Origin: a virus
Taxonomy: Duplodnaviria > Heunggongvirae > Uroviricota > Caudoviricetes
Length of the DNA stretch: 10,097 nucleotides
Strand: one strand, 5' to 3'
Virus record (IMG/VR): IMGVR_UViG_2537561978_000012
Span: 1 to 10,097 of that record
Notes under the pieces: generated by a model
Seen by the model: only the letters and a program-made list of their open reading frames with translations
Database searches by the model: none
What the model was told of the DNA's origin: nothing
Made by a program: the position numbers and the translations under genes
Part shown: one piece after another, positions 1 through 10,097 of the stretch
How the letters are laid out: each line of letters begins with the position of its first letter
How positions within the stretch are numbered: the stretch's first letter is position 1

Positions 1-189
1 TAGTGCCAGCACGGTTTCTGGTCCGGTCAGAAATTTGAAGGCGTTGAGCGCATCAATATCCACACCGTAATCCTTAAGTTCCTGTTCACTTAACAAATCA
101 TCATCAACTGGCAACATTAACAGGCGTTCCATTGCCGGAATTGCACGTTCTGCCGCCTCACGCAGTGCCTGATAATTAATTTCGCTCAC
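1..189 (-). CDS. Partial ORF running off the left edge; Ea22-like N-terminus (tentative)
   Basis: Minus-strand frame is open from a GTG at 189..187 to position 1 (63 codons, no stop). GGAGGA Shine-Dalgarno lies about 8 nt upstream, and the GTG overlaps the TGA stop of the upstream gene (GTGA). Translation begins VSEINYQALREAAERAIPAMERLL, which resembles my recollection of the lambda Ea22 N-terminus. Not in the ORF track because it is incomplete. Confidence 0.4.
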   Translation of the reverse strand, partial: MSEINYQALREAAERAIPAMERLLMLPVDDDLLSEQELKDYGVDIDALNAFKFLTGPETVLAL

Positions 190-410
190 TCTTCATCCTC
201 CAAGTCGGCAACGGCGTCCATCACATCAGAACCGCGAATAACCTCAAAAGCACGGCAGGCCATTTGAAATACCAGTTGCTCTTGCGGGTGAGGAGACTCC
301 CAATATTTGAAGCCTGGGCGATGCGTGTACCCCATCATTGAATAAAAATCACCAGCAAGCTTAATCGCGGCATCGACAAGCTCTCTGTTAGTCATTCTTT
401 TTCCGCTCAC
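186..410 (-). CDS. Hypothetical small phage protein (74 aa)
   Basis: Complete ORF in the track. Start codon is GTG at 410..408, preceded by a strong AAGGAGG Shine-Dalgarno about 8 nt upstream. Lies in a same-strand run of small genes; no family recognised. Confidence 0.5.
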   Translation of the reverse strand: MSGKRMTNRELVDAAIKLAGDFYSMMGYTHRPGFKYWESPHPQEQLVFQMACRAFEVIRGSDVMDAVADLEDEE

Positions 411-702
411 TGGCTGCCTCCTTTACTGGGCTTTCGAATGTATCAAACTCAAACAACTTAACTACGTCATCAAACAGGACATAATCGCCATCAGAATCTT
501 CAGTCATGTCAGCGCCACAATCCTGACCGAACGAGTCACAACCATCCATATCAAGCTCGTATCGCTTGAGTTTTGCGATATTTGATAAATTCAGCGCCAG
601 TACAGCAAGGTCATAAACCTCATCAGCGGTATACCCGGCACCATGCCCATACATTTCAATACGGGATATGATTTCTTCTACACGTTGTTTTGTGATCGTC
701 AT
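388..702 (-). CDS. Hypothetical strongly acidic protein (104 aa)
   Basis: ATG at 702..700 overlaps the TGA stop of the upstream gene (ATGA). By my count about 24 Asp/Glu against about 11 Lys/Arg, with an acidic C-terminal half (DMTEDSDGDYVLFDDVVKLFEFDTFE). No family recognised. Confidence 0.55.
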   Translation of the reverse strand: MTITKQRVEEIISRIEMYGHGAGYTADEVYDLAVLALNLSNIAKLKRYELDMDGCDSFGQDCGADMTEDSDGDYVLFDDVVKLFEFDTFESPVKEAASERKKND

Positions 703-1115
703 TTTTGCTCACCTTCCTGTTCTTCCAGAAAAATACGCATAGCCTCAAGCATCTCTTCGGTGTCATACGGAGACAGCTTGTCACGCAGGATGTGTTCAAT
801 GCTGTTAATGAACTTGCGGATTGCTTTGCGTTCAATTTCAGCCAGGAAAGCGTCGGTGGCTGGGGTTTCCGTGAAGTTGTCCTCCCAACCGTAGTACTCC
901 TGACGACAGAAGTTATTAAATTCCTTCTCCGACTGTTTAAGCCCAGCATTCTCCGCTGCCAGCGCATTAGCACGCACCAGTTGCACTTCCAGTTGCGTTG
1001 CCAAATAGCTGATCAGCTTTGCCACACTGCGCATATCAACGGCACCACATTCTGCTTTCAGTTCCGAAGCCATCTCATGCCCGGCGGCAACTAACCCTTT
1101 GATATTACTTTCCAT
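699..1115 (-). CDS. Hypothetical phage protein (138 aa), probably alpha-helical / coiled-coil
   Basis: ATG at 1115..1113 with a GAGGG Shine-Dalgarno 6-7 nt upstream; stop overlaps the next start. Sequence is rich in A/E/L/K heptad-like stretches. No family recognised. Confidence 0.6.
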   Translation of the reverse strand: MESNIKGLVAAGHEMASELKAECGAVDMRSVAKLISYLATQLEVQLVRANALAAENAGLKQSEKEFNNFCRQEYYGWEDNFTETPATDAFLAEIERKAIRKFINSIEHILRDKLSPYDTEEMLEAMRIFLEEQEGEQK

Positions 1116-1176
1116 CTTTACCCTCGCTTATCCACATAACTTATTGATTACATTGATAACTAAAAAGATCGTCGAT

Positions 1177-1521
1177 TCAGAACTCTTCGATGTTCCAGCC
1201 GCCACCTGCTTTCTTTGGTTTAACCGTTACCCCGATGATTCGGAACGGATACTGATCTGCGGCTACTTTGGTTTTCACTCTGGCGTCGTCGGTCCAGAAA
1301 CCTTTCACTTCGTGCAGTTCCATCTCTCCGGTGGCGAGCATCACAGCGAAATCGGGCGTATAGAACGTGTTGTCAGCTAACCGCAGCTTAATACCCTCGA
1401 ATAGATACCAGGCGATTTCCCCTGCACGTTTACGCTGCTCAAGGTGCTGGCAATACGCAGATTCTGTTTTGTTCATCTGGCCTGTTTTGAGTCGACCAAG
1501 AGCCTGTATCTGTTTTCTCAT
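1177..1521 (-). CDS. DUF1064-like PD-(D/E)XK-fold protein (putative nin-region nuclease)
   Basis: ATG at 1521..1519. An AGAGG Shine-Dalgarno sits inside the operator palindrome at 1525-1539. Protein has a PD...E.HEVKG arrangement (YTPDF ... ELHEVKG) typical of small PD-(D/E)XK nucleases; overall resembles the about 115 aa DUF1064 phage proteins as I recall them. Confidence 0.55.
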   Translation of the reverse strand: MRKQIQALGRLKTGQMNKTESAYCQHLEQRKRAGEIAWYLFEGIKLRLADNTFYTPDFAVMLATGEMELHEVKGFWTDDARVKTKVAADQYPFRIIGVTVKPKKAGGGWNIEEF

Positions 1522-1524
1522 GAT

Positions 1525-1601
1525 TTACCTCTAAGGTAATTAAAAACCACATAAGACACGAAATCAATAGAGTTTAGAATATTTTATTACCTCACAGGTA
1601 A
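1525..1601 (-). promoter_or_regulatory. Operator pair plus candidate leftward promoter for the nin-like operon
   Basis: Two perfect TTACC-N5-GGTAA palindromes at 1525-1539 (TTACCTCTAAGGTAA) and 1587-1601 (TTACCTCACAGGTAA), 62 bp centre to centre. On the minus strand a TAAAAT -10-like hexamer immediately follows the 1587-1601 site, and a TTGATT / TTTAAT pair lies between the sites. The 1525-1539 site covers the Shine-Dalgarno and abuts the ATG at 1521. Confidence 0.55.
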
Positions 1602-1611
1602 TTATCGAGAC

Positions 1612-1633
1612 GTAAAAAAATGCGCTATCGCGC
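1612..1633 (-). terminator. Weak intrinsic-terminator-like element downstream of the P-like gene
   Basis: On the minus strand, immediately after the stop at 1641..1639: GCGC-GATA-GCGC hairpin (4 bp GC stem) followed by a T7 run (plus-strand A7 at 1614-1620). Stem is short, so strength is doubtful. Confidence 0.3.
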
Positions 1634-1638
1634 TGGTA

Positions 1639-2415
1639 TTACTTGATAAATCCTGCCGCCTTTCCCCGCCTGTATTCCTCCATCAGCCACTGCGCCGGTG
1701 TTATTCCCCCAAGGGTGGCGGCGTTAGGCATGCACCCGAAACTTCGCCCTGGTGGATGGTAAACGTCTCTCCCTGTGTCCGGAGGCGTACTCATGGGTTC
1801 TGGCTTTGCCTGTATGCTGATCACCGGATCCGGTATCTGCTGTCCGGAAGCCACCTTTTTCGCCCAATCATCGAGCAGCCTGCGCGCGTGTTTCTCAACC
1901 TCAATCTCGCTAAGCTGGCGCTGATACATTGCACGGCGGGTATCACATACGACCCAGTACATAACCGGATGTCGCCACGGGAATCTTTCGGGACCACCAG
2001 GATATAAACTTTTTTCCTTGCTGTACCGGTGAAACTCCGCCATCACATCGTCAATGGTGACGCCAAGAACCATCTTGCTGTCTTTACACCACTTGATGAA
2101 TTGCCCTGGCGACGGCCAGAACGGAGACTCACTGGCGCGGGCGTGGCGCATACCAGCGTTAACCTGTTCCATTGTAGTGATCCCATTCTCCAGAAACGCA
2201 AGCATCCATTGCTTACGGAATTCATTAAGTTTGTTCTGCTCCCTTATGGTCGAAACGCTTGCGGGAAATGCAGCCTGTAACTGGACAAATAGTTCATTGA
2301 AAATTCTAGCGACCTGCTCCTTTTTGCCATTGCTGTCACGCCGCTCTTCATGCACAGCAACACCATGCTCACGTAAGCGATCGTACTCATTGAGAAGTTC
2401 TGGAGTTGATTTCAT
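1639..2415 (-). CDS. Lambda P-like replication protein (DnaB helicase loader)
   Basis: 258 aa. Long collinear similarity to lambda P as I recall it: AAFPASV...NEFRKQWMLAFLENGITTMEQVNAGMRHAR...PFWPSPGQFIKWCKD versus lambda ATFPASL...NEIRRQWVLAFRENGITTMEQVNAGMRVAR...PFLPSPGQFVAWCRE. ATG at 2415..2413 with an AAGGGG Shine-Dalgarno; start overlaps the 3' end of the upstream O-like gene. Confidence 0.85.
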   Translation of the reverse strand: MKSTPELLNEYDRLREHGVAVHEERRDSNGKKEQVARIFNELFVQLQAAFPASVSTIREQNKLNEFRKQWMLAFLENGITTMEQVNAGMRHARASESPFWPSPGQFIKWCKDSKMVLGVTIDDVMAEFHRYSKEKSLYPGGPERFPWRHPVMYWVVCDTRRAMYQRQLSEIEVEKHARRLLDDWAKKVASGQQIPDPVISIQAKPEPMSTPPDTGRDVYHPPGRSFGCMPNAATLGGITPAQWLMEEYRRGKAAGFIK

Positions 2416-3217
2416 CCCACACCCCTTCTATCCAGTCAGTGTTATTCCAGTCAAGCTCATCGCTTTTCCCGGCGTTTTTTGATTTTCCCCTGATATGATT
2501 TACGTGCCTGGCGAATTTTTGTTCCCACTGAACCTGCGTGAACACTTTGCCCTCAGCCATCCAGTAATCCCGGAATGCAGCAAGTTCAGCAGGTGTAAAT
2601 TCCGGTTCCGGCAGGGCCGTTCCCCACAGCGCAGCACGCCGTCGAAAATCCGGCGACGGATGCCAGCCATCGGTCATCGGAAATTTCCCGATGGGTTCAC
2701 TCAGGCCATCCAGAAATTCAGGTTCAGCCACCTGCAACGGCATACCGTTCGCTTCACTGGTCGGAGCACCCTCGCGCACGTGCGCTATGTGTGGGGTTTT
2801 ATATATATCTTCCTCTTCCTCTTCCTCTGGTAACTCCTTTTGTAACGCTGTTGGCGTTACTTTTTGCGTTACTCGTTTTCGATGCTCTGCCACTCTTCTA
2901 TTCGTAAGTGCACGTTTTTTCGATGATTCTCCATTGTGTCGCTCAAAGTTTGGAAGAATTAGTTTGCCGTCATGATAAGCAAGCCATCCGACGCTAATGA
3001 GGGCGTCAGCAAATCCTGTAATAAAAGCGAGTCTATCAAGTACTCCTTTTGTAACGCTGCCAGCGTTACCGTCTATTGTTTGCTGGTCAGCCCATGCCCA
3101 TATACGAACCAGCTTTCCAAGAACAGCATCTGGATCAATACCCAGAATTTCTGCTATCTGAAAAATTTCAGGTTTATCAGGAGTGATAACTTCAACCTTA
3201 ATCCAGCTGCTTGCCAT
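2387..3217 (-). CDS. O-like replication initiator (HTH N-terminus, acidic linker, DnaT-like C-terminus; tentative)
   Basis: Track ORF is 2387..3235 beginning at a GTG. I prefer the ATG at 3217..3215 (MASSWIKVEV...) because GAGGGG lies about 7 nt upstream. Sits immediately upstream of and overlapping the P-like gene, carries an EEEEEE linker and internal iteron-like DNA repeats. Not similar in sequence to lambda O; assignment rests on position and architecture. Confidence 0.65.
   Translation of the reverse strand: MASSWIKVEVITPDKPEIFQIAEILGIDPDAVLGKLVRIWAWADQQTIDGNAGSVTKGVLDRLAFITGFADALISVGWLAYHDGKLILPNFERHNGESSKKRALTNRRVAEHRKRVTQKVTPTALQKELPEEEEEEDIYKTPHIAHVREGAPTSEANGMPLQVAEPEFLDGLSEPIGKFPMTDGWHPSPDFRRRAALWGTALPEPEFTPAELAAFRDYWMAEGKVFTQVQWEQKFARHVNHIRGKSKNAGKSDELDWNNTDWIEGVWDEINSRTSQ
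2797..3069. repeat. Iteron-like repeat array inside the O-like gene (candidate replication origin)
   Basis: Two perfect 19-bp palindromes GTAACGC-N5-GCGTTAC at 2842-2860 and 3051-3069, each preceded by the identical 18-mer ACTCCTTTTGTAACGCTG (2833-2850 and 3042-3059). Extra GCGTTAC half-site at 2866-2872; CGTTTT(TT)CGATG direct repeats at 2874-2884 and 2913-2925; (TA)-rich tract TTTTATATATAT at 2797-2808; (CTTCCT)3 at 2809-2826. Confidence 0.5.
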
Positions 3218-3410
3218 AGGTTTCCCCTCTTGCACTCTTTAGTGCACAAGCAAATTCATTACGATGGCGGTTGGCGCTATTCATTGCACATTCAACACAT
3301 GTTCCGTTCAGAACATACCTTTCAGAGAGATGGCCGTGACGGCACCGCTTTCCTGTGAAATAGCGATTTAACCCGGCTTTTGCGGCCTCCATTCTGGTTA
3401 CTATCTTCAA
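3198..3410 (-). CDS. Small zinc-ribbon-like protein at the cII position (hypothetical)
   Basis: Track ORF starts at a TTG (3410..3408) with an AAGAGG Shine-Dalgarno about 9 nt upstream; alternative ATG at 3392..3390 (MEAAKAG...) has no obvious Shine-Dalgarno. Contains C-x-H-x-H ... C-x2-C (KRCRHGH...CVEC). Its 3' end overlaps the O-like start region. No similarity to lambda CII noted. Confidence 0.45.
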   Translation of the reverse strand: MKIVTRMEAAKAGLNRYFTGKRCRHGHLSERYVLNGTCVECAMNSANRHRNEFACALKSARGETYGKQLD

Positions 3411-3517
3411 TTTTTCCGCCTCTTTTTGTTATTGATATTGGCTATTTTGCACAATTGGAAAATTTGATCAACCAGATTTGGTTTTTTATTACCTTTGAGG
3501 TACGAATAGATATGAAA

Positions 3518-3537
3518 AGACCGCCGGGTGGCGGTCT
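3518..3537 (-). terminator. tR1-position hairpin (possible partial terminator / attenuator)
   Basis: Perfect 8-bp stem AGACCGCC / GGCGGTCT with loop GGGT, located between the Cro-like gene end (3559) and the zinc-ribbon gene. On the minus strand it is followed by TTTCATATC, a weak U-tract. No T-run on the plus strand. Confidence 0.35.
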
Positions 3538-3558
3538 ACAGAGGGTTGTAGCTGGATA

Positions 3559-3789
3559 TCATGAGTAGAAGAAGTATGCCAGTTCTGCTTTTGAGCGCAG
3601 CCATTGTCTTGTTTTACAGGCTTTAAAAAGCCCATTCATCAATACTTTACCTGGCATTTTGCGCTTACCTGTTAAGTGAGTCTGGATATAGTGACTCGTC
3701 GTTCCGGCTTCCTGTGCGAAGGCTTCACGCTCATCCGGAGTAAGTGCAAGCCAGTGCTTTTTGAAATCGAAATGTCCGTTATCGCTCAT
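3559..3789 (-). CDS. Cro-like small HTH regulator
   Basis: 76 aa; ATG at 3789..3787. First gene leftward from the divergent operator region, facing the repressor gene. Predicted helix-turn-helix around EAFAQEAGTTSHYIQTHLTGKR. Position and size match a Cro analogue; no direct similarity to lambda Cro. Confidence 0.55.
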   Translation of the reverse strand: MSDNGHFDFKKHWLALTPDEREAFAQEAGTTSHYIQTHLTGKRKMPGKVLMNGLFKACKTRQWLRSKAELAYFFYS

Positions 3790-3821
3790 AGCTATTGCCT
3801 GATATTTATTTCAGATAATAA

Positions 3822-3888
3822 ATATTCACCCATAAGGTAACAAAAATCAAGGATAGTTACCTATGAGGTGCATTTACCTGTTGGGTAA
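3822..3888. promoter_or_regulatory. OR-like tripartite operator with divergent promoters
   Basis: Site C 3874-3888 TTACCTGTTGGGTAA (perfect); site B 3857-3871 TTACCTATGAGGTGC (left half perfect, right half 3/5); site A 3826-3840 TCACCCATAAGGTAA (one mismatch). Candidate leftward promoter on the minus strand: -35 TTGATT (plus 3845-3850), 17-bp spacer, -10 GAATAT (plus 3822-3827), with site A inside the spacer/-10. The rightward repressor promoter is not confidently located; TAATAT at 3886-3891 is a candidate -10. Confidence 0.6.
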
Positions 3889-3943
3889 TATTGCTTTAAA
3901 TTGAATCATCTACTGATTCATATATGAGGCGATTTTCCAGAAA

Positions 3944-4528
3944 ATGAAAAGTATCCAGGACGTCCGCAGGCAAAATCTCAACGACTTGATCGACCGTGAA
4001 TTCAATGGTGTTCAGACGCGGATGGCAGAAAAACTTGGAACTCAGGCAAATCTGGTAAACCGCTGGGCTCTTGGCAAGAAGGTTATCGGCGACCAGGTTG
4101 CGCGAAAAATTGAAGCTGCCGCCAATAAACCCCGTAACTGGCTTGATATCGATCGCTCGCTTTCTCAGGAGGGGTTTCAGCCTGTCGGCCCAAGCGACAT
4201 TGGTCAGCTGGCGGCTCACAACCTGGAACGCTGGATGAGCGAAAGCCGCGACCTTTCAACGCAGGGAAAACTACACCGCGCATCCGGCGTCGCCCAGGTG
4301 ACAATCAGCCGCCTGTTAAACAATGAAGTCAGCGTTTCCATTTCCACCCTAGAGAATGTTGCATCCGCATTCGGGCGTCACGGCTATGAATTACTGATTC
4401 ACCCGCACGACCCTGCGACTATCAACTATGACCGCTCGCGCTACGCATTGTTACCCGAAACAGAGAAGGCAAAGATCGAAAGTTACATTGAATTTGTCAT
4501 CAGCCAGAACGAAAGAAGCAAACAATAA
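3944..4528 (+). CDS. Prophage repressor, CI-position, dual helix-turn-helix, no S24 peptidase domain
   Basis: 194 aa. First ATG of the frame at 3944, in-frame stop upstream at 3914-3916, no convincing Shine-Dalgarno. Two HTH-like segments: MAEKLGTQANLVNRWALGKK (N-terminal) and LHRASGVAQVTISRLLNNEVSVSISTL (C-terminal). No Ala-Gly / Ser...Lys autocleavage module evident. Divergent from the Cro-like gene, followed by a terminator and then the pL-like promoter, i.e. the lambda cI layout. Confidence 0.7.
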   Translation: MKSIQDVRRQNLNDLIDREFNGVQTRMAEKLGTQANLVNRWALGKKVIGDQVARKIEAAANKPRNWLDIDRSLSQEGFQPVGPSDIGQLAAHNLERWMSESRDLSTQGKLHRASGVAQVTISRLLNNEVSVSISTLENVASAFGRHGYELLIHPHDPATINYDRSRYALLPETEKAKIESYIEFVISQNERSKQ

Positions 4529-4548
4529 AACTATAGTTTTCAGTAAGT

Positions 4549-4573
4549 AAGCCGCCTCATGGCGGCTTTTTTA
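4549..4573 (+). terminator. Rho-independent terminator after the repressor gene (tImm-like)
   Basis: AAGCCGCC-TCAT-GGCGGCTT hairpin (GC-rich 6-8 bp stem) followed directly by a T-run at 4567-4572, 21 nt after the TAA stop at 4526-4528. Confidence 0.75.
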
Positions 4574-4585
4574 TTGCCAACAAGA

Positions 4586-4662
4586 TTACCTTATGGGTAA
4601 TTTTTTTAACTCATATCTATTGACATCAAACCAAATACGCATAATTATTACCTCAACGGTAA
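4586..4662 (+). promoter_or_regulatory. pL-like early promoter flanked by two perfect operators
   Basis: Perfect palindromes at 4586-4600 (TTACCTTATGGGTAA) and 4648-4662 (TTACCTCAACGGTAA). Between them a consensus -35 TTGACA at 4620-4625 and an A/T-rich -10 candidate (AATTAT, 4643-4648) after a 17-bp spacer. The downstream site overlaps the -10 and start region. Confidence 0.65.
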
Positions 4663-4681
4663 CAGACCGAGGTAACAAGTT

Positions 4682-4834
4682 ATGCAGTGGAAAATCATCA
4701 ACGGTTGGTACTGCGTTACTGCATGCGGATTCATGAGCTGGAAGTTCCGCACCTTACAGGAAGGCATTAAGTGGGCTTTCGTCAGCAAAGAAGCTCGCGA
4801 TGTGGCCAACGATAACGAGATATGGGAGGGCTGA
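4682..4834 (+). CDS. Untracked small ORF (50 aa), first gene of the pL-like operon
   Basis: ATG at 4682 preceded by GAGGT at 4669-4673 (8-nt spacing); TGA at 4832-4834, two nucleotides before the next ATG. Hand translation: MQWKIINGWYCVTACGFMSWKFRTLQEGIKWAFVSKEARDVANDNEIWEG. Missing from the track only because it is shorter than the shortest listed ORF. Not Arg-rich, so not N-like. Confidence 0.4.
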   Translation: MQWKIINGWYCVTACGFMSWKFRTLQEGIKWAFVSKEARDVANDNEIWEG

Positions 4835-4836
4835 TA

Positions 4837-5136
4837 ATGAACGTTAATCAGCAGAAAAATCTTCAAAAAATCATGCTGGCATTCGACAAGGACTACCGCC
4901 TGTCAGAACAGCTATATGACCGACAAGTTGAACTGATTGAGAGCATCCGACTTCATCAACTGTCCTCAACTTTCGACGTTGTAACAGGCAAAGGCGTTCG
5001 TCAGGAAGTGCTGGAGGCTGCTAAAGACAGCCCTGAGTTCGAAGAACTGATGGATTCCTACCGGCGCGAGGCAATGGCAATTATAGCGCGCTGGGATCTG
5101 GCGGATCAGCTTGATGGGCAGAGGGAAGCGGCATGA
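4837..5136 (+). CDS. Hypothetical protein (99 aa) immediately upstream of the exonuclease
   Basis: Track ORF 4822..5136 begins at a non-ATG codon; ATG at 4837 (MNVNQQ...) follows a GGGAGGG Shine-Dalgarno. Stop overlaps the exonuclease start (ATGA at 5133-5136). No family recognised. Confidence 0.6.
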   Translation: MNVNQQKNLQKIMLAFDKDYRLSEQLYDRQVELIESIRLHQLSSTFDVVTGKGVRQEVLEAAKDSPEFEELMDSYRREAMAIIARWDLADQLDGQREAA

Positions 5137-5954
5137 AACCGGGAATTTATTTCGACATCAGCAACGAAGACTACCACGCCGGTGACGGCGTGAGTAAGTC
5201 GCAACTGGACATGGTTGCCAAGAATCCGGCGCTTCTTAAATGGGTTCAGGCAGCACCAGAAGACGAAGAGAAAAAGTCTGCACTGGATATGGGAACCGCA
5301 TTGCACTGTCTGCTTCTGGAGCCTGGAGAATTCGACAAACGCTTCATTGTTTCACCGAAGTTCGATCGTCGGACGAAACAAGGTAAAGCTGACGAAGAGG
5401 CATTTCTTCGTGATGTGGCGGATATGGGGATTACGGTACTTGATGCCGAGCAGTGGCGGAAACTGGAGCTGATGCGTGATAGCGCAATGGCTCACCCGGC
5501 GGCACGCTGGATGTTGGAAGCACCTGGTTACTGCGAAGCGTCAATGTACTGGAACGATGAAGAAACGGGTGAGTTGTGCCGAATTCGTCCAGACAAATGG
5601 CTGAACGAGCACAACGTGATCATCGACGTGAAAAAGGTTGCAGATATGGACCGTTTTGCACGTCACATCGAGGAATTCCGCTACCACGTGCAGGACGCAA
5701 TGTACCGCGAAGGCGCAATGAGGGTTACTGGTCAGCCGCATGGTTTTTTCTTTCTTGCCGTGAGCGAAAGCATTGATTGTGGTCGGTATCCGGTACGCGT
5801 GTTCGAGCTGGATGCGCCGGATGTCGATGCCGGGCACGCTCTGTTCCGCCGGGATCTGAATACCTATCACGAATGCCGCATCAACGATGAGTGGGGCGGA
5901 GTGGAAATTATTAAACGCCCTGACTGGGCACGTAAACAGGATATGTACGTATGA
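5133..5954 (+). CDS. RecE-like PD-(D/E)XK 5'-3' exonuclease (exonuclease VIII-like domain)
   Basis: 273 aa; nuclease motif arrangement RPD ... IIDVKK (D ... D-x-K). Sits directly upstream of, and is translationally coupled to, the annealase (ATGA overlap at 5951-5954). Not similar to lambda Exo as I recall it. Confidence 0.7.
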   Translation: MKPGIYFDISNEDYHAGDGVSKSQLDMVAKNPALLKWVQAAPEDEEKKSALDMGTALHCLLLEPGEFDKRFIVSPKFDRRTKQGKADEEAFLRDVADMGITVLDAEQWRKLELMRDSAMAHPAARWMLEAPGYCEASMYWNDEETGELCRIRPDKWLNEHNVIIDVKKVADMDRFARHIEEFRYHVQDAMYREGAMRVTGQPHGFFFLAVSESIDCGRYPVRVFELDAPDVDAGHALFRRDLNTYHECRINDEWGGVEIIKRPDWARKQDMYV

Positions 5955-6832
5955 GCAATGATATCGCAATCACATCACAACCAGGCGCAACTGTAGGCAC
6001 TGCTGCGGCAATCTTCAGCCCCGAGGGAATGAATCAACTGGTGCGTTTCGCTGAGTTGATGTCACAAAGCAAAGCGACTGTACCGAAACATCTTGAAGGC
6101 AAACCTGCCGATTGCCTGGCGGTGACCATGCAGGCGGCACAGTGGGGAATGAACCCTTTCGCCGTGGCGCAGAAAACGCATGTGGTAAACGGAACGTTAG
6201 GCTACGAAGCACAGTTGGTAAACGCGGTCGTATCCTCGTCAAGCCTGCTGGCGACACGCCTGAATTATCGCTGGAGCGGTGACTGGTCGAATGTTAACGG
6301 CAAAACAGATAAATCACCGAATCTGACGGTAACTGTGTCAGCAGTTCTTAAAGGAGAAGCAGAACCACGTGAGCTTACCATCAGTATGGCGCAAGCCGGA
6401 GTGCGTAACTCTCCATTGTGGGAACAGGATCCTCGCCAGCAGCTTGCCTATCTTTGCACGAAACGATGGGCTCGCCTGCACGCTCCTGATGTACTTCTCG
6501 GTGTTTACACCCCTGACGAATTACAGGAAACGGCACCGCGCGTTGAACGAGACATTACTCCGCAAACAACTACTGCTGCGGGAATGAACAGTCTGATCAA
6601 CGCTAAACCAGTGAAAAAGCCTGATGAGCAAACGCGTAAAGCGGATAGCCGTGATCCAGAAGAAATGCTGATGGCCTTTACCAGCGCAGCGATGAATTAC
6701 AGCACTGTCTCCGAACTGGATAAGGCTTACAAATACATTGCACAAAAACTTTCAGATGATGACGAACTGCTGGCAAAAGCAACCGACGTTTACAGCGTTC
6801 GTCGGGAAGAATTAAACGAAACATCTATGTAA
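5951..6832 (+). CDS. Bet/Red-beta-family single-strand annealing protein
   Basis: 293 aa. Collinear matches to lambda Bet as I recall it: AAQWGMNPF versus ANQYGLNPW, and PRVERDITP versus QPERDITP, with a similar hydrophobic core between. Confidence 0.75.
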   Translation: MSNDIAITSQPGATVGTAAAIFSPEGMNQLVRFAELMSQSKATVPKHLEGKPADCLAVTMQAAQWGMNPFAVAQKTHVVNGTLGYEAQLVNAVVSSSSLLATRLNYRWSGDWSNVNGKTDKSPNLTVTVSAVLKGEAEPRELTISMAQAGVRNSPLWEQDPRQQLAYLCTKRWARLHAPDVLLGVYTPDELQETAPRVERDITPQTTTAAGMNSLINAKPVKKPDEQTRKADSRDPEEMLMAFTSAAMNYSTVSELDKAYKYIAQKLSDDDELLAKATDVYSVRREELNETSM

Positions 6833-6881
6833 CCACCACCGCGGCGCCACACGCGCCGCACTGCAACCAAGAGAGGTATTT

Positions 6882-7130
6882 ATGAAAGGTGCATTAGGTA
6901 AGAAGGAACTCCTGGCGGTGGTGCCACTGTCATGGAGCACTATCGACCGTATGGAGCGCGCAGGGGAATTTCCTAAACGCTGGTATATCACTGACAAACG
7001 CTGCGCATGGAACCGTGACGAAGTTGAGCGTTGGCTTGATGAACGTCAGGCAGCAAGTCCGGCAGAGTTCCAGGGTAAAAAACCTCCTGTTCAGCAACGT
7101 GTATATCGTCCCGTGAGCAACGCTGCATGA
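6882..7130 (+). CDS. AlpA-family small HTH protein (excisionase / regulator-like)
   Basis: 82 aa; ATG at 6882 with AGAGG about 6 nt upstream. Sequence pattern LSWSTIDRMERAGEFPKRWYI...AWNRDEVERWL is typical of AlpA/Xis-type MerR-like HTH proteins that accompany P4-type integrases. Confidence 0.7.
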   Translation: MKGALGKKELLAVVPLSWSTIDRMERAGEFPKRWYITDKRCAWNRDEVERWLDERQAASPAEFQGKKPPVQQRVYRPVSNAA

Positions 7131-7239
7131 GTGCGCTGCTAAGGCACTGGAGCAAATGGTCAGGATGGTACTTATTCCTGGCCTCTGTTTCAGCATGGCT
7201 TTATCTGCTGGCATTAATTTTCAGAGAGGGTTGGATTAA

Positions 7240-7539
7240 GTGAGAAAGTTAAGCCGACTTGAAAAATATCACATGAATAAGGTTTCAATGCGTAGTCCGT
7301 CAAAGATTGTCGCCGTTACTCCTGCGGCGATAGAGATCGAAAAACGCGCGATTGAAAGAGAAAAAAAAGGGCAGTTCCGCATTGCCGCTCACCTTTGGCT
7401 TCAGTGTATGGATGTTGCTTCTGGTGATGTTGAGCGAGCAAGGATTGCGGTTCGCAGGGACCAATGTATCACAAAAGGTAACGGCCTTCGCCGTGGCGAC
7501 TATAGCGGCATAGGATGTTGTGGGGTGGTTTATGACTAA
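7240..7539 (+). CDS. PerC-like small regulator (tentative); start uncertain
   Basis: Track ORF begins at GTG 7240; alternative ATGs at 7273 and 7288, the latter with AAGG 5 nt upstream. Core EKKGQFRIAAHLWLQCMDV...ERARIAVRRDQC resembles the PerC-family pattern as I remember it. 3' end overlaps the methyltransferase start by 8 nt. Confidence 0.4.
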   Translation: MRKLSRLEKYHMNKVSMRSPSKIVAVTPAAIEIEKRAIEREKKGQFRIAAHLWLQCMDVASGDVERARIAVRRDQCITKGNGLRRGDYSGIGCCGVVYD

Positions 7540-8182
7540 GAAATACACACTAATCTATGCAGATCCACCCTGGGTATACCGGGACAAAGCCGCAGATGGT
7601 AATCGCGGTGCCGGTTTTAAATATCCGGTTATGAGTGTGCTTGATATCTGCCGCCTTCCTGTGTGGGATTTGGCCGATGAAAACTGTCTGTTGGCCATGT
7701 GGTGGGTGCCAACACAACCACTCGAAGCACTAAAAGTTGTTGAAGCCTGGGGATTCCGTCTGATGACCATGAAGGGCTTCACGTGGATAAAATGTGGTAG
7801 TCGACAACAAGATAAACTGGTTATGGGTATGGGTCACATGACTCGCGCCAATAGTGAAGATTGCCTGTTTGCAGTAAAGGGAAAACTACCTCCGCGCATT
7901 AATGCAGGGATCGTTCAGTCATTTACCGCACCGCGGCTTGAGCATTCAAGAAAACCAGATGTCGTTCGTGAAAAACTTGTGCAATTGTTAGGCGATGTTT
8001 CTCGCATTGAACTGTTCGCCCGCCAGTCGTCTCATGGCTTCGATGTTTGGGGTAATCAGTGCGAAGACCCGGCAGTGCAACTACACCCTGGATACGCGTT
8101 GGCTATTGGCGGATTAACAAATGCATTCAGCAATGCTCCGCTGTCACCAACAGACAACCAGGGGCGGGAGCGTTCAGCATGA
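7532..8182 (+). CDS. MT-A70-family N6-adenine DNA methyltransferase (orphan)
   Basis: Track ORF starts at GTG 7520; I prefer ATG 7532 ([14 protein letters not shown]...). Catalytic DPPW motif near the N-terminus. No adjacent restriction endonuclease candidate. TGA stop overlaps the phosphatase start (ATGA at 8179-8182). Confidence 0.8.
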
Positions 8183-8838
8183 ACCTATATCAACGCATCA
8201 ATGGCGCTGACTGGTGCAATATCTTCGTCGTCGGCGATCTGCATGGGTGCTACACGCTGCTGATGAACGAACTCGACAAAGTTTCATTCGACCCGGCGCG
8301 CGATTTGCTTATTTCCGTTGGTGACCTTGTTGACCGCGGCGCTGAAAACGTCGAATGCCTGGATTTGATTACTATGCCGTGGTTCCGAGCTGTTCGTGGC
8401 AACCATGAGCAGATGATGCTGGATGCACTGGTCAACGGCGGAAGTTTCGGACATTGGATGTCAAACGGCGGTGGATGGTGGCGCCAACTTGATTCTGAGC
8501 AGGATGTGCAACTCAAATACCTTCTGCCAAAGGTTACCAACCTCCCGATGATTATCGAACTGGTTACCGGCAATAAGAAGGTCGTCATCTGCCACGCAGA
8601 CTACCCCCACAACGAATACGCATTCGATAAGCCAGTACCGGAAGAAATGGTGATATGGAATCGTGAGCGGGTTAGCGACGCGCAGGACGGTATTGTCTCG
8701 GAGATAACCGGTGCCGATTTGTTCATCTTCGGTCATACGCCAGCACATCACCCACTAGTGTATGCAAACCAGATGTACATCGACACCGGCGCAGTGTTCT
8801 GCGGAAATCTGACGCTTACCAAAGTCCAGGAAGGATAG
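8179..8838 (+). CDS. Lambda-type Ser/Thr protein phosphatase (metallophosphoesterase)
   Basis: Track ORF starts upstream at 8059, but homology begins at ATG 8179 ([12 protein letters not shown]...). Signature motifs GDLHG, GDLVDRG and GNHE are present, and similarity to lambda phosphatase (as I recall it) runs end to end, including the C-terminal [13 protein letters not shown]. Confidence 0.9.
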
Positions 8839-8840
8839 AA

Positions 8841-10097
8841 TTATTTATTACTGTCTTCCATCCACTTCTCAAACTTCGACGGGGAGAACGGAATCAGATC
8901 CGTATGCTCCCCGTTAATCCAGGAATCAATCATATCGGCCCACTGCTGCAACATGTAGGCGCGCTGTCTGGCGTATTCCGCTTTGTTATATACGGCGCGC
9001 ACACCTTTCTGCTCATGTGCCAGAGCCTTTTCAATCCAGTCTGAAGGATAACCAGCCTCATGCAACAACGTACTGGCTGTACGGCGCATATCATGTACAG
9101 TGAAGTCCTGAATATACTCACCATCTTCATTTATTATTTTCACCGTTCTGTCGATCAGAGAGTTCAGTGCGGCATTAGATAATGGCTTCCGGAAATTGTA
9201 ACGACCAGGAACCAGATATTCACTTCCACCAGCGCACATCTGCAACCCAACCAATATATCCTGTGCCTGTTTTGGCAGGTAAATAACGTGCGCCCGGCTT
9301 CCCTTCATGCGGTCTGAAGGAATTGTCCATGTCCATTTTTTAAAATCTATTTCGTCCCACGTTGCATTGGTGAATTCGCCTTTACGAACCATAGTGATAA
9401 GCACCAGTTTTAAAGCCATTTTCATAGTGCCCATAGCACCAATGGCATCCAGCGTGCGGAAGAAAAGACCAATTTCTTCTGGTGTCAGCGTTCGCTCTCG
9501 TGGTTTAAATATGGCGATAGACGAAGGCTTAATATCAGCCGCAGGATTAAACAAACCATGACCGCGGTCATTGGCGTGACGGTATACGCTGCTGATGATC
9601 TCCCTGGCCTGCACTGCTGTTGCCCGGCCACCGCGTTCGACAATCCGGTCACACAAATCACGAACCATCGATGTGGTAATTTCAGCCATCATTTTGTTGC
9701 CAAGAACCGGAAGTATGTCACGGTCGATCACCGCCTGCTTCATTGCGCGGGTACTGTCAGCCAGGATGACGTGTTTCATATAACTGTCGGTATGTACCGC
9801 AAACGTCTCGGCACCACGAATCTTTTTGATACCGTCACGTTTAGCCGCAGCCGGCGACTGGCCTGCTTTAAGCAACTTCTTTGCAGCAATCAGTTCTTCC
9901 CGCGCTTCTGCCAGGCTGATACCGTCACGCCCATACTGCCCGATTACCAGTGTTTCGCGGCGACCGTTGATACGGTAGTCATAGCGAAACGAGACCGTAC
10001 CTGACGTAAGCACAGCTACATACAGCCCGTCACGATCGGAGACCTTGTACAGTTTGTCCTGCGGCTTGAGGTTTTTTAATTTTGTATCGGTAAGCAC
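8841..10097 (-). CDS. int: P4-type tyrosine integrase; N-terminus at or just beyond the right window edge
   Basis: 418 aa. N-terminal LTDTKLKNLKP...YKVSDRDGLYV...FRYDYRINGRRETL is typical of the arm-binding domain of P4-family integrases. C-terminal catalytic region includes HDMRRT and a Tyr-containing tail (RAVYNKAEY). First codon in the window is GTG at 10097..10095, so the true start may lie just outside. Convergent with the phosphatase gene, 2-nt gap. Confidence 0.9.
   Translation of the reverse strand: MLTDTKLKNLKPQDKLYKVSDRDGLYVAVLTSGTVSFRYDYRINGRRETLVIGQYGRDGISLAEAREELIAAKKLLKAGQSPAAAKRDGIKKIRGAETFAVHTDSYMKHVILADSTRAMKQAVIDRDILPVLGNKMMAEITTSMVRDLCDRIVERGGRATAVQAREIISSVYRHANDRGHGLFNPAADIKPSSIAIFKPRERTLTPEEIGLFFRTLDAIGAMGTMKMALKLVLITMVRKGEFTNATWDEIDFKKWTWTIPSDRMKGSRAHVIYLPKQAQDILVGLQMCAGGSEYLVPGRYNFRKPLSNAALNSLIDRTVKIINEDGEYIQDFTVHDMRRTASTLLHEAGYPSDWIEKALAHEQKGVRAVYNKAEYARQRAYMLQQWADMIDSWINGEHTDLIPFSPSKFEKWMEDSNK

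Follow-up and report, generated by a model that had tools for sequence, protein, structure and literature searches.

A candidate lambda-style replication origin within the initiator gene of a temperate phage

The window analysed here is the whole stretch of 10,097 nucleotides (positions 1 to 10,097) of the IMG/VR virus record IMGVR_UViG_2537561978_000012, and it contains a replication initiator gene on the minus strand whose coding sequence holds repeated palindromes next to an AT-rich tract. We consider it probable that positions 2797-3069 form a phage replication origin located within its own initiator gene and working like the origin of phage lambda (oriλ), a reading drawn from sequence comparison. 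The sites are repeated, specific to the initiator and placed inside its coding sequence (five GTAACGC half-sites, which co-vary with the subfamily of the N-terminal domain), and an AT-rich, strand-asymmetric tract of low stability adjoins them on the side of the helicase loader gene. A lambdoid-type origin at this place had been put forward in an original prediction made from the letters alone, and this reading is now supported by synonymous-site conservation, by the gene content and by the lambda-like order of sites followed by a purine/AT tract. What is described is a probable lambda-style origin of an unstudied, widespread initiator family, the principle of an origin inside the initiator gene being already known from lambda. 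A literature search found no publication describing the origin of this initiator family.

Palindromes and a purine/AT tract inside the initiator gene

The elements on which the candidate origin is built are the following.

2387..3217, minus strand: replication initiator gene, 276 amino acids, ATG at 3217 with GAGGGG before it (open reading frame (ORF) list, phrog_2509, PF17948)
2858..3217, minus strand: coding region of the N-terminal domain, presumed to bind the origin (about amino acids 1-120), winged-helix-like in an AlphaFold2 model
3051..3069, no strand assigned: palindrome 1 (cluster I), GTAACGC-TGCCA-GCGTTAC, encoding GNAGSVT in a loop of the N-terminal domain; arms invariant in 56 relatives
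2830..2872, no strand assigned: cluster II, four half-sites in the orientation -> -> <- <- with a 12-13 bp period, made up of palindrome 2 and two flanking half-sites
2797..2829, no strand assigned: candidate unwinding region, on the sense strand a (GAGGAA)3 polypurine run at 2808-2828 (21 nt) and then ATATATATAAAA at 2797-2808

A 28-nt repeat is found at 2833-2860 and 3042-3069 with a spacing of 209 bp, and each copy holds GTAACGC-N5-GCGTTAC, so that the two identical-armed 19-bp palindromes described in the original prediction are indeed present. The 18-mer ACTCCTTTTGTAACGCTG, said there to precede each palindrome, is also shared by the two copies, but it consists of 9 flanking nt and the first 9 nt of the palindrome itself. 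A spacing of 209 bp is not divisible by three, which puts the copies into different reading frames (GNAGSVT and KVTPTAL), and there is therefore no peptide repeat. Palindrome 2 (GTAACGC-CAACA-GCGTTAC, 2842-2860, gene nt 358-376) forms the core of cluster II, whose sense strand reads GTAACGC-AAAAA-GTAACGC-CAACA-GCGTTAC-AAAAGGA-GTTAC. The third half-site that had been noticed beside it is a perfect GCGTTAC (sense GTAACGC) at 2866-2872, and a degenerate fourth one, GTAACTC (sense GAGTTAC), lies at 2830-2836. GTAACGC occurs six times in the window, five of them inside 2842-3069 (228 bp), against an expectation of 1.14, and none of 200 shuffled sequences reached six. In the complete 44.8-kb genome of phage TL-2011b, the full palindrome with two or fewer mismatches is present at these two places only (expected 0.09).

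Cluster II is directly followed by the candidate unwinding region, which encodes the linker EEEEEE-DIYK. Both parts of it had been correctly recognized beforehand, namely the tract TTTTATATATAT at 2797-2808 and the (CTTCCT)3 run at 2809-2826 that encodes EEEEEE on the minus strand. Of all 20-mers in the gene, the least stable lies in the region 2797-2829; across the 10-kb window it comes fifth (z 2.8), and the four less stable 20-mers all lie in gaps between ORFs. Its 21-nt homopurine run is the longest in the window, and the 40-nt purine maximum of the sense strand of the gene (0.825) starts at gene nt 377, directly after palindrome 2. The GAGGAA hexamer of the poly-Glu linker is present in two to five copies among close relatives (L032-L091), TL-2011b having two, and this variation looks like a slippage polymorphism within the candidate unwinding tract. 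Relatives from Vibrio and phage PAN70 (L010 1898-1929 and L009 1887-1931) carry AT-rich short tandem units after cluster II, GAGTAGATAAGAGTA twice and TAGAGAAGAtTTAGA-like units three times, respectively, which are reminiscent of repeated unwinding-element motifs.

Two further direct repeats, CGTTTTCGATG at 2874-2884 and CGTTTTTTCGATG at 2914-2926, make up the CGTTTT(TT)CGATG pair that had been proposed as an additional origin element. The pair exists, but relatives do not retain it and just one of its copies falls within a conserved stretch, so that its assignment to the origin did not hold.

Selection on the sites and their co-variation with the N-terminal domain

Relatives of the initiator were drawn from a phage collection and from IMG/VR, where a scan gave at least 599 matching stretches, at least 548 of which were confirmed as relatives. 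Diversity was analysed over the first 405 nt of the gene in 56 distinct sequences of 75-100% nucleotide identity, and third-codon-position nucleotide diversity (pi3) was taken from codons with a conserved amino acid. The original prediction held that the repeats are constrained beyond coding, and named as its refutation a synonymous-site conservation no higher than in flanking codons. For the 8 codons with their third base in a palindrome arm, pi3 was 0.005, compared to 0.416 over the 87 others (Mann-Whitney p = 9e-6), which upholds the claim. In palindrome 2, the five central bases are hypervariable, with up to four bases per column and a diversity of 0.60-0.74, whereas the arms are near-invariant. 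Synonymous sites are also nearly invariant in the relatives through GCGTTAC-AAAAGGAGTTACC-(AGAGGA)n, that is, from the palindrome into the purine-rich tract.

The same DNA motif is retained even where it is translated differently. Palindrome 2 is read as KVTPTAL in the window, in BUCT554 and in a Klebsiella phage, whereas 673R7, Xanthomonas phage Tabio and Pseudomonas phages VW-6S and PAN70 read it as GNAxxV[ST], in the frame of palindrome 1. In Tabio, where the GC content at third codon positions is 0.81, both palindromes contain codons that this phage uses rarely, namely GGT (0.14 of its Gly codons), GCT (0.06) and GTT (0.10). Moreover, 673R7 and a Rac-like prophage (MN652886) have a third copy of the palindrome, which is non-coding and lies directly upstream of the ribosome-binding site and ATG of the initiator. 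The low pi3, the variable centre, the change of frame, the rare codons and the non-coding copy together exclude a peptide-level or chance origin of the palindromes. Collectively, the palindrome sites are shown to be under selection at the DNA level, independent of frame or codon usage. The third copy (673R7, L004 1474-1494; MN652886, L101 1953-1973, minus strand) has no counterpart in the window, and its position in those two genomes suggests autoregulation by the initiator.

Two other stretches of the gene show conserved synonymous sites.

3018..3034, no strand assigned: conserved-synonymous stretch, sense GACTCGCTTTTATTACA, pi3 dip at gene nt 184-200
2906..2929, no strand assigned: second conserved-synonymous stretch, sense GAATCATCGAAAAAACGTGCACTTAC, pi3 dip at gene nt 289-312, containing the CGTTTTTTCGATG copy

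The former may be a degenerate half-site, because distant relatives have an extra GCGTTAC half-site there; in VW-6S, PAN70, ctnlZ23 and QkW1, GCGTTA is found at gene nt 194-197.

Across phages, the sites follow the N-terminal domain. Ten phages with a GNAxSV(T/S) N-terminal domain carry the palindrome pair, 207-216 bp apart, and retain it across differing immunity regions, upstream genes and C-terminal domains. Their hosts are Escherichia, Enterobacter, Klebsiella, Xanthomonas, Pseudomonas and Ralstonia, and two of them come from environmental or faecal samples. Other subfamilies of the N-terminal domain have their own half-sites, again arranged in two clusters, which mostly fall at gene nt ~140-200 and ~340-410, whereas the ε15 group has its cluster I more upstream (gene nt ~54-105). 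A Vibrio phage has GTCAC..GTGAC in both clusters, with four of four half-sites changed in step. GTCCGC/GCGGAC half-sites are found in ε15, SPN1S, BUCT711, phiPSA1 and RPZH3, and in SPN1S and ε15 the layout of cluster II is the same as that in the window. Ralstonia phage Raharianne uses GTAGAC half-sites, and an Aeromonas phage has direct-repeat triplets of CGTGAC. In every subfamily, the sites are followed by a purine-rich AGAGAA/AGAAGA run.

The homology among relatives stops a few bases past the AT tract, where different C-terminal modules, DnaT-like or unrelated, are joined. Such an end point would be expected of a single specificity cassette made up of the N-terminal domain and its sites, of the kind seen in lambdoid O genes. 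The presumed binding domain and the sites share the same ~420 bp of coding sequence, and would therefore be inherited and exchanged as one specificity module.

The initiator protein, its gene neighbourhood and a proposed pathway

The initiator matches phrog_2509, 'replication initiation protein', in PHROGs (E 1.6e-129), and has three parts, an N-terminal region of ~120 amino acids, an acidic linker (EEEEEE) and a C-terminal domain of the DnaT, single-stranded-DNA-binding type. Its start at 3217 is that of the TL-2011b annotation; the longer GTG start at 3235 given by the ORF tool is not used in that annotation and was set aside. The N-terminal domain (amino acids 1-140) has no Pfam match even at E values up to 5 and no NCBIfam family, a sequence search of the Protein Data Bank (PDB) gave no match, and a query of a protein database returned mainly fragments from which no annotation was gained. 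In its AlphaFold2 model, the core has a predicted local distance difference test score (pLDDT) of 76-94, with helices at residues 16-25, 29-49, 57-64 and 69-76 and a beta-hairpin at 80-87. Structure comparison gave MarR and winged-helix matches only, none of them significant, and the modelled fold may be described as winged-helix-like.

The C-terminal domain and the neighbouring loader gene belong to recognizable families.

2471..2683, minus strand: coding region of the DnaT-like C-terminal domain binding single-stranded DNA (PF17948, PRK02854 partial, PDB 6aep/4ou6/9zbt)
1639..2415, minus strand: lambda-P-like helicase loader gene (PF06992, phrog_109), overlapping the end of the initiator gene, stop codon included, by 29 nt

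The C-terminal domain matches the Pfam DnaT family PF17948 with an E value of 6.5e-19 (67.9 bits, cut-off 25) and DnaT chains of the PDB with E values of 1e-17 to 1e-21 (6aep, 7.7e-21). The initiator scores 93 bits against the full-length DnaT equivalog (NCBIfam PRK02854, partial match), below the cut-off of 201, and is therefore a domain relative of DnaT rather than DnaT itself. The original prediction had called the gene O-like, which is borne out by its position and domain content as an initiator but not as homology to lambda O. Membership of the lambda O family was rejected, as no Phage_rep_O domain was found with Pfam and a BLASTP comparison with lambda O matched the C-terminal tail only (E 0.003). 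This tail, LDWNNTDWIEGV (2420-2458, minus strand; amino acids ~254-266), resembles the lambda O C-terminus LDLTNTDWIYGV in that single, weak comparison. The shared tail may be a docking motif for P-type loaders; in relatives paired with DnaC-like loaders the tail is IPPGFRG instead.

The loader gene lies directly downstream of the initiator gene in the order of transcription, as had been claimed, and its product is a genuine lambda-P homologue (PF06992, E 1.7e-55, 187.7 bits, cut-off 26; 39% identity to lambda P, E 2e-49). The genes upstream of the initiator are a zinc-finger-like ORF of 70 amino acids, one resembling cro and a divergent one resembling cI, and this gene order identifies the region as a temperate phage's early-right operon. 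Escherichia phages TL-2011b (~98%), HEMP4 and vB_EcoP_ZX5, which are ε15-like podoviruses, match the window at 98-99% identity, and prophages with the 301-bp segment of the candidate origin are found in 121 of 5,426 complete E. coli genomes.

The 70-amino-acid ORF (3198-3410, minus strand) occupies the position of cII and overlaps the start of the initiator by 20 nt. It has a C-x-H-G-H ... C-x-x-C pattern, no Pfam family, a match to phrog_1081 (function unknown) and 48% identity to its SPN1S counterpart. Between this ORF and the cro-like gene, a strong terminator-like hairpin, AGACCGCCACCCGGCGGTCT and then TTTCATATCT (3518-3537, minus strand), occupies a tR1-like position; by implication, the replication genes are controlled through antitermination or read-through. 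A different palindrome, TTACC-N5-GGTAA, occurs seven times in the window against 0.15 expected (1525-1539, 1587-1601, 3489-3503, 3826-3840, 3874-3888, 4586-4600 and 4648-4662), always between genes; the copies flank the cI-like and cro-like genes and are also found downstream of the P-like gene. The motif is present in BUCT554, a Klebsiella phage, SPN1S, ε15 and BUCT711 as well, and the ε15 record has an annotated repressor-binding site at one such position; these copies are probably repressor operators of the ε15 type. No DnaA boxes were found near the candidate origin, and their number across the window equals the chance expectation. The sole perfect DnaA box, TTATCCACA at 1128-1136, lies in an AT-rich stretch ~1.7 kb from the candidate origin.

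In the proposed pathway, early transcription of the minus strand would give rise to the initiator, and dimers of its N-terminal domain would bind the palindromes and the flanking half-sites to form cluster I (3051-3069) and cluster II (2830-2872). The nucleoprotein complex would then stress or open the adjacent polypurine/TA tract (2797-2829), and the two clusters might be brought together by looping of the ~190 bp between them, 209 bp being ~20 helical turns. The DnaT-like C-terminal domain could hold the exposed single strand, dock the lambda-P-like loader, or both, and the loader would bring the host DnaB. We infer these steps, namely binding by the N-terminal domain, looping, melting and the recruitment of the P-like protein and DnaB, from the arrangement of genes and sites.

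A stronger form of this proposal is a truly bipartite origin, in which clusters ~20 helical turns apart are joined by initiator-mediated looping and cluster I encodes a loop (GNAxSVT) of the domain by which it is itself bound; we regard this form as rather unlikely. In the Vibrio relative, a change of AAC to CAC replaces Asn with His together with the change of GTAAC to GTCAC. If the bipartite form were true, the nucleotides altered in a change of origin specificity would be shared by protein and site, which would provide a physically coupled route to new replicon specificities.

Alternative explanations, significance and comparison with known systems

Several observations weigh against an origin at 2797-3069. 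There are two full sites only, 209 bp apart, compared to the four contiguous iterons of lambda, and the conserved spacing of 207-210 bp could simply mirror the conserved length of the protein (69-70 codons). The AT tract is short (~12-20 nt) and not exceptional at the scale of 40-100 nt, where several intergenic regions are less stable. Poly-Glu codons consist of purines only, and coding thus accounts for part of the polypurine run. Two further stretches of conserved synonymous sites, 3018-3034 and 2906-2929, lie between the palindromes, and no obvious repeat was found in the Xanthomonas SAC relative. To these should be added two points taken up below, a purely regulatory role of the palindromes and their detection by a terminator scan.

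The palindromes might be sites at which the initiator or another phage protein acts in regulation only, by autoregulation or as a roadblock in the early operon, while replication starts elsewhere, for example in the AT-rich intergenic region downstream of the P-like gene. The third palindrome of 673R7 and the Rac-like prophage, directly before the initiator's ATG, occupies a typical autoregulatory position, and the intergenic regions 1506-1606 and 3802-3902 are less stable than the in-gene tract at the 40-100 nt scale. However, those regions hold TTACC-N5-GGTAA operators without initiator-specific repeats, the conserved order of sites and then a purine/AT tract on the loader side matches oriλ, and the AT tract marks the end of a single exchangeable module made up of the N-terminal domain and the sites. 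In addition, lambda uses the same sites as its origin, so regulation may coexist with origin function, and we judge an exclusively regulatory role to be unlikely. It is less likely still that the binder is unrelated to the initiator, be it a CI-type repressor, the 70-amino-acid zinc-finger-like protein or a host protein. The half-site GGTAAC resembles the GGTAA half of TTACC-N5-GGTAA, and a small ORF just upstream is conserved in the ε15-like relatives. Nevertheless, 673R7, Tabio, VW-6S, PAN70, ctnlZ23 and QkW1 keep the GTAACGC palindromes and the N-terminal domain despite quite different immunity regions and upstream genes, and they have no TTACC-N5-GGTAA operators. Conversely, ε15, SPN1S and BUCT711 have the operators without the GTAACGC palindrome pair, carrying other in-gene repeats in its place. 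The in-gene palindromes were thus rejected as ε15-type immunity operators, since the motif is different and the two types of sites are distributed independently across phages. The upstream zinc-finger protein is an unlikely binder because SPN1S shares the ORF without the motif, and no DnaA boxes lie nearby.

A role as RNA hairpins, either antisense intrinsic terminators or elements of mRNA processing or stability, appears highly improbable. A terminator scan flags both palindromes on the plus strand, palindrome 2 being followed by TTTTT, and an invariant stem with a variable loop is compatible with such a role. Against this, palindrome 1 has no T run, no compensatory changes are seen in the stems of the subfamily, further half-sites with a 12-bp period are found outside the hairpins, and the Aeromonas relative has direct rather than inverted repeats at the same places; a scan of 2300-4000 found no plus-strand promoter-like site ahead of the palindromes. 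The idea that the repeat is a by-product of protein conservation (a repeated peptide) or of chance hardly deserves credence. Palindrome 1 does encode the conserved GNAxSVT, and palindrome 2 of distant relatives encodes the same peptide. This is contradicted by the differing frames of the two copies, by their invariant synonymous sites, by the rare codons in GC-rich phages and by the non-coding copy in 673R7 and the Rac-like prophage, while the shuffled sequences (0 of 200 with six GTAACGC) and the expectation of 0.09 full palindromes in the 44.8-kb TL-2011b genome speak against chance.

An origin inside the initiator gene, working as in lambda, thus remains the probable reading, and it provides a precise candidate origin together with a recognition sequence, GTAACGC-N5-GCGTTAC, for a widespread, unstudied phage initiator family. 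With at least 548 relatives in IMG/VR, this family is also found in Klebsiella, Enterobacter, Pseudomonas, Xanthomonas, Ralstonia and Vibrio phages and in ε15-like podoviruses. The series of N-terminal domains and half-sites (GTAAC, GTCAC, GCGGAC, GTAGAC and CGTGAC) is a natural system for the co-evolution of initiator and origin specificity within one coding segment, and it could yield orthogonal phage-derived replicons. As initiator genes that contain the origin are familiar from textbook accounts of lambda, the finding extends rather than overturns what is known.

The closest comparison is with oriλ of lambda and the Stx phages, in which DnaB is delivered by P. The lambda origin lies centrally in gene O and consists of iterons and an AT tract on which the O-some is assembled, two iterons and the AT tract being the minimal unwinding unit (PMC7466680). 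Cluster II together with its tract would be the analogue of this unit. The two systems have in common sites that occupy the central part of the initiator gene (codons ~116-130 here, 117-145 in lambda) and are each a dyad of 18-19 bp, a tract whose codons specify a charged linker joining the N- and C-terminal domains, and P or its homologue (39% identity) as the product of the next gene. Lambda O has four annotated iterons at nt 349-433, followed by an AT-rich tract that is purine-rich on the sense strand, and by one metric the 40-nt purine maximum starts directly after the last site in both genes (O nt 431, 0.80; nt 377 here, 0.825). However, the initiator of the window is not a lambda O homologue and has a DnaT-like C-terminal domain, its sites form two clusters 209 bp apart instead of four to six contiguous iterons, its pure AT tract is ~12 nt compared to ~40 bp, and its first cluster lies inside the coding region of the presumed binding domain itself.

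A similar arrangement is known from oriL of Bacillus phage SPP1, which lies in gene 38, where the replisome organiser G38P binds repeats in its own coding sequence beside an AT-rich segment. SPP1 differs from the phage described here in its unrelated protein family, host and loader (G39P), and it has direct-repeat boxes and a second origin elsewhere.

The replication module of the Rac prophage (ydaU-ydaV) shares the order of regulator genes, initiator and loader with the window, and Rac has been reported to have an active origin, oriJ (PMC3945230). The Rac-like prophage MN652886 and phage 673R7 have a YdaU with the N-terminal domain subfamily and the GTAACGC palindromes of the window's initiator. 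In contrast, the K-12 Rac YdaU has an unrelated DUF1376 N-terminal domain, which ruled it out as a homologue, and its loader is DnaC-like rather than P-like. K-12 ydaU (L102 2261-2563) contains five in-gene AGATGTTCAA-like direct repeats with spacings of 211, 33, 33 and 12 bp, which may be the iterons of oriJ.

A further parallel is provided by DopC/DopE, a domesticated, phage-derived lambda O/P-like pair of Cellvibrionales and Oceanospirillales (PMC5509034). DopC has an HTH_36-like N-terminal domain and, unlike the conserved repeats found here, no iteron-like repeats lie in dopC, which its authors judged to serve no longer as an origin (PMC5509034). The shared architecture is nevertheless evident, since DopC, like the initiator of the window, combines a DNA-binding N-terminal domain with a DnaT C-terminal motif and is encoded directly upstream of a lambda-P-like protein (PMC5509034).

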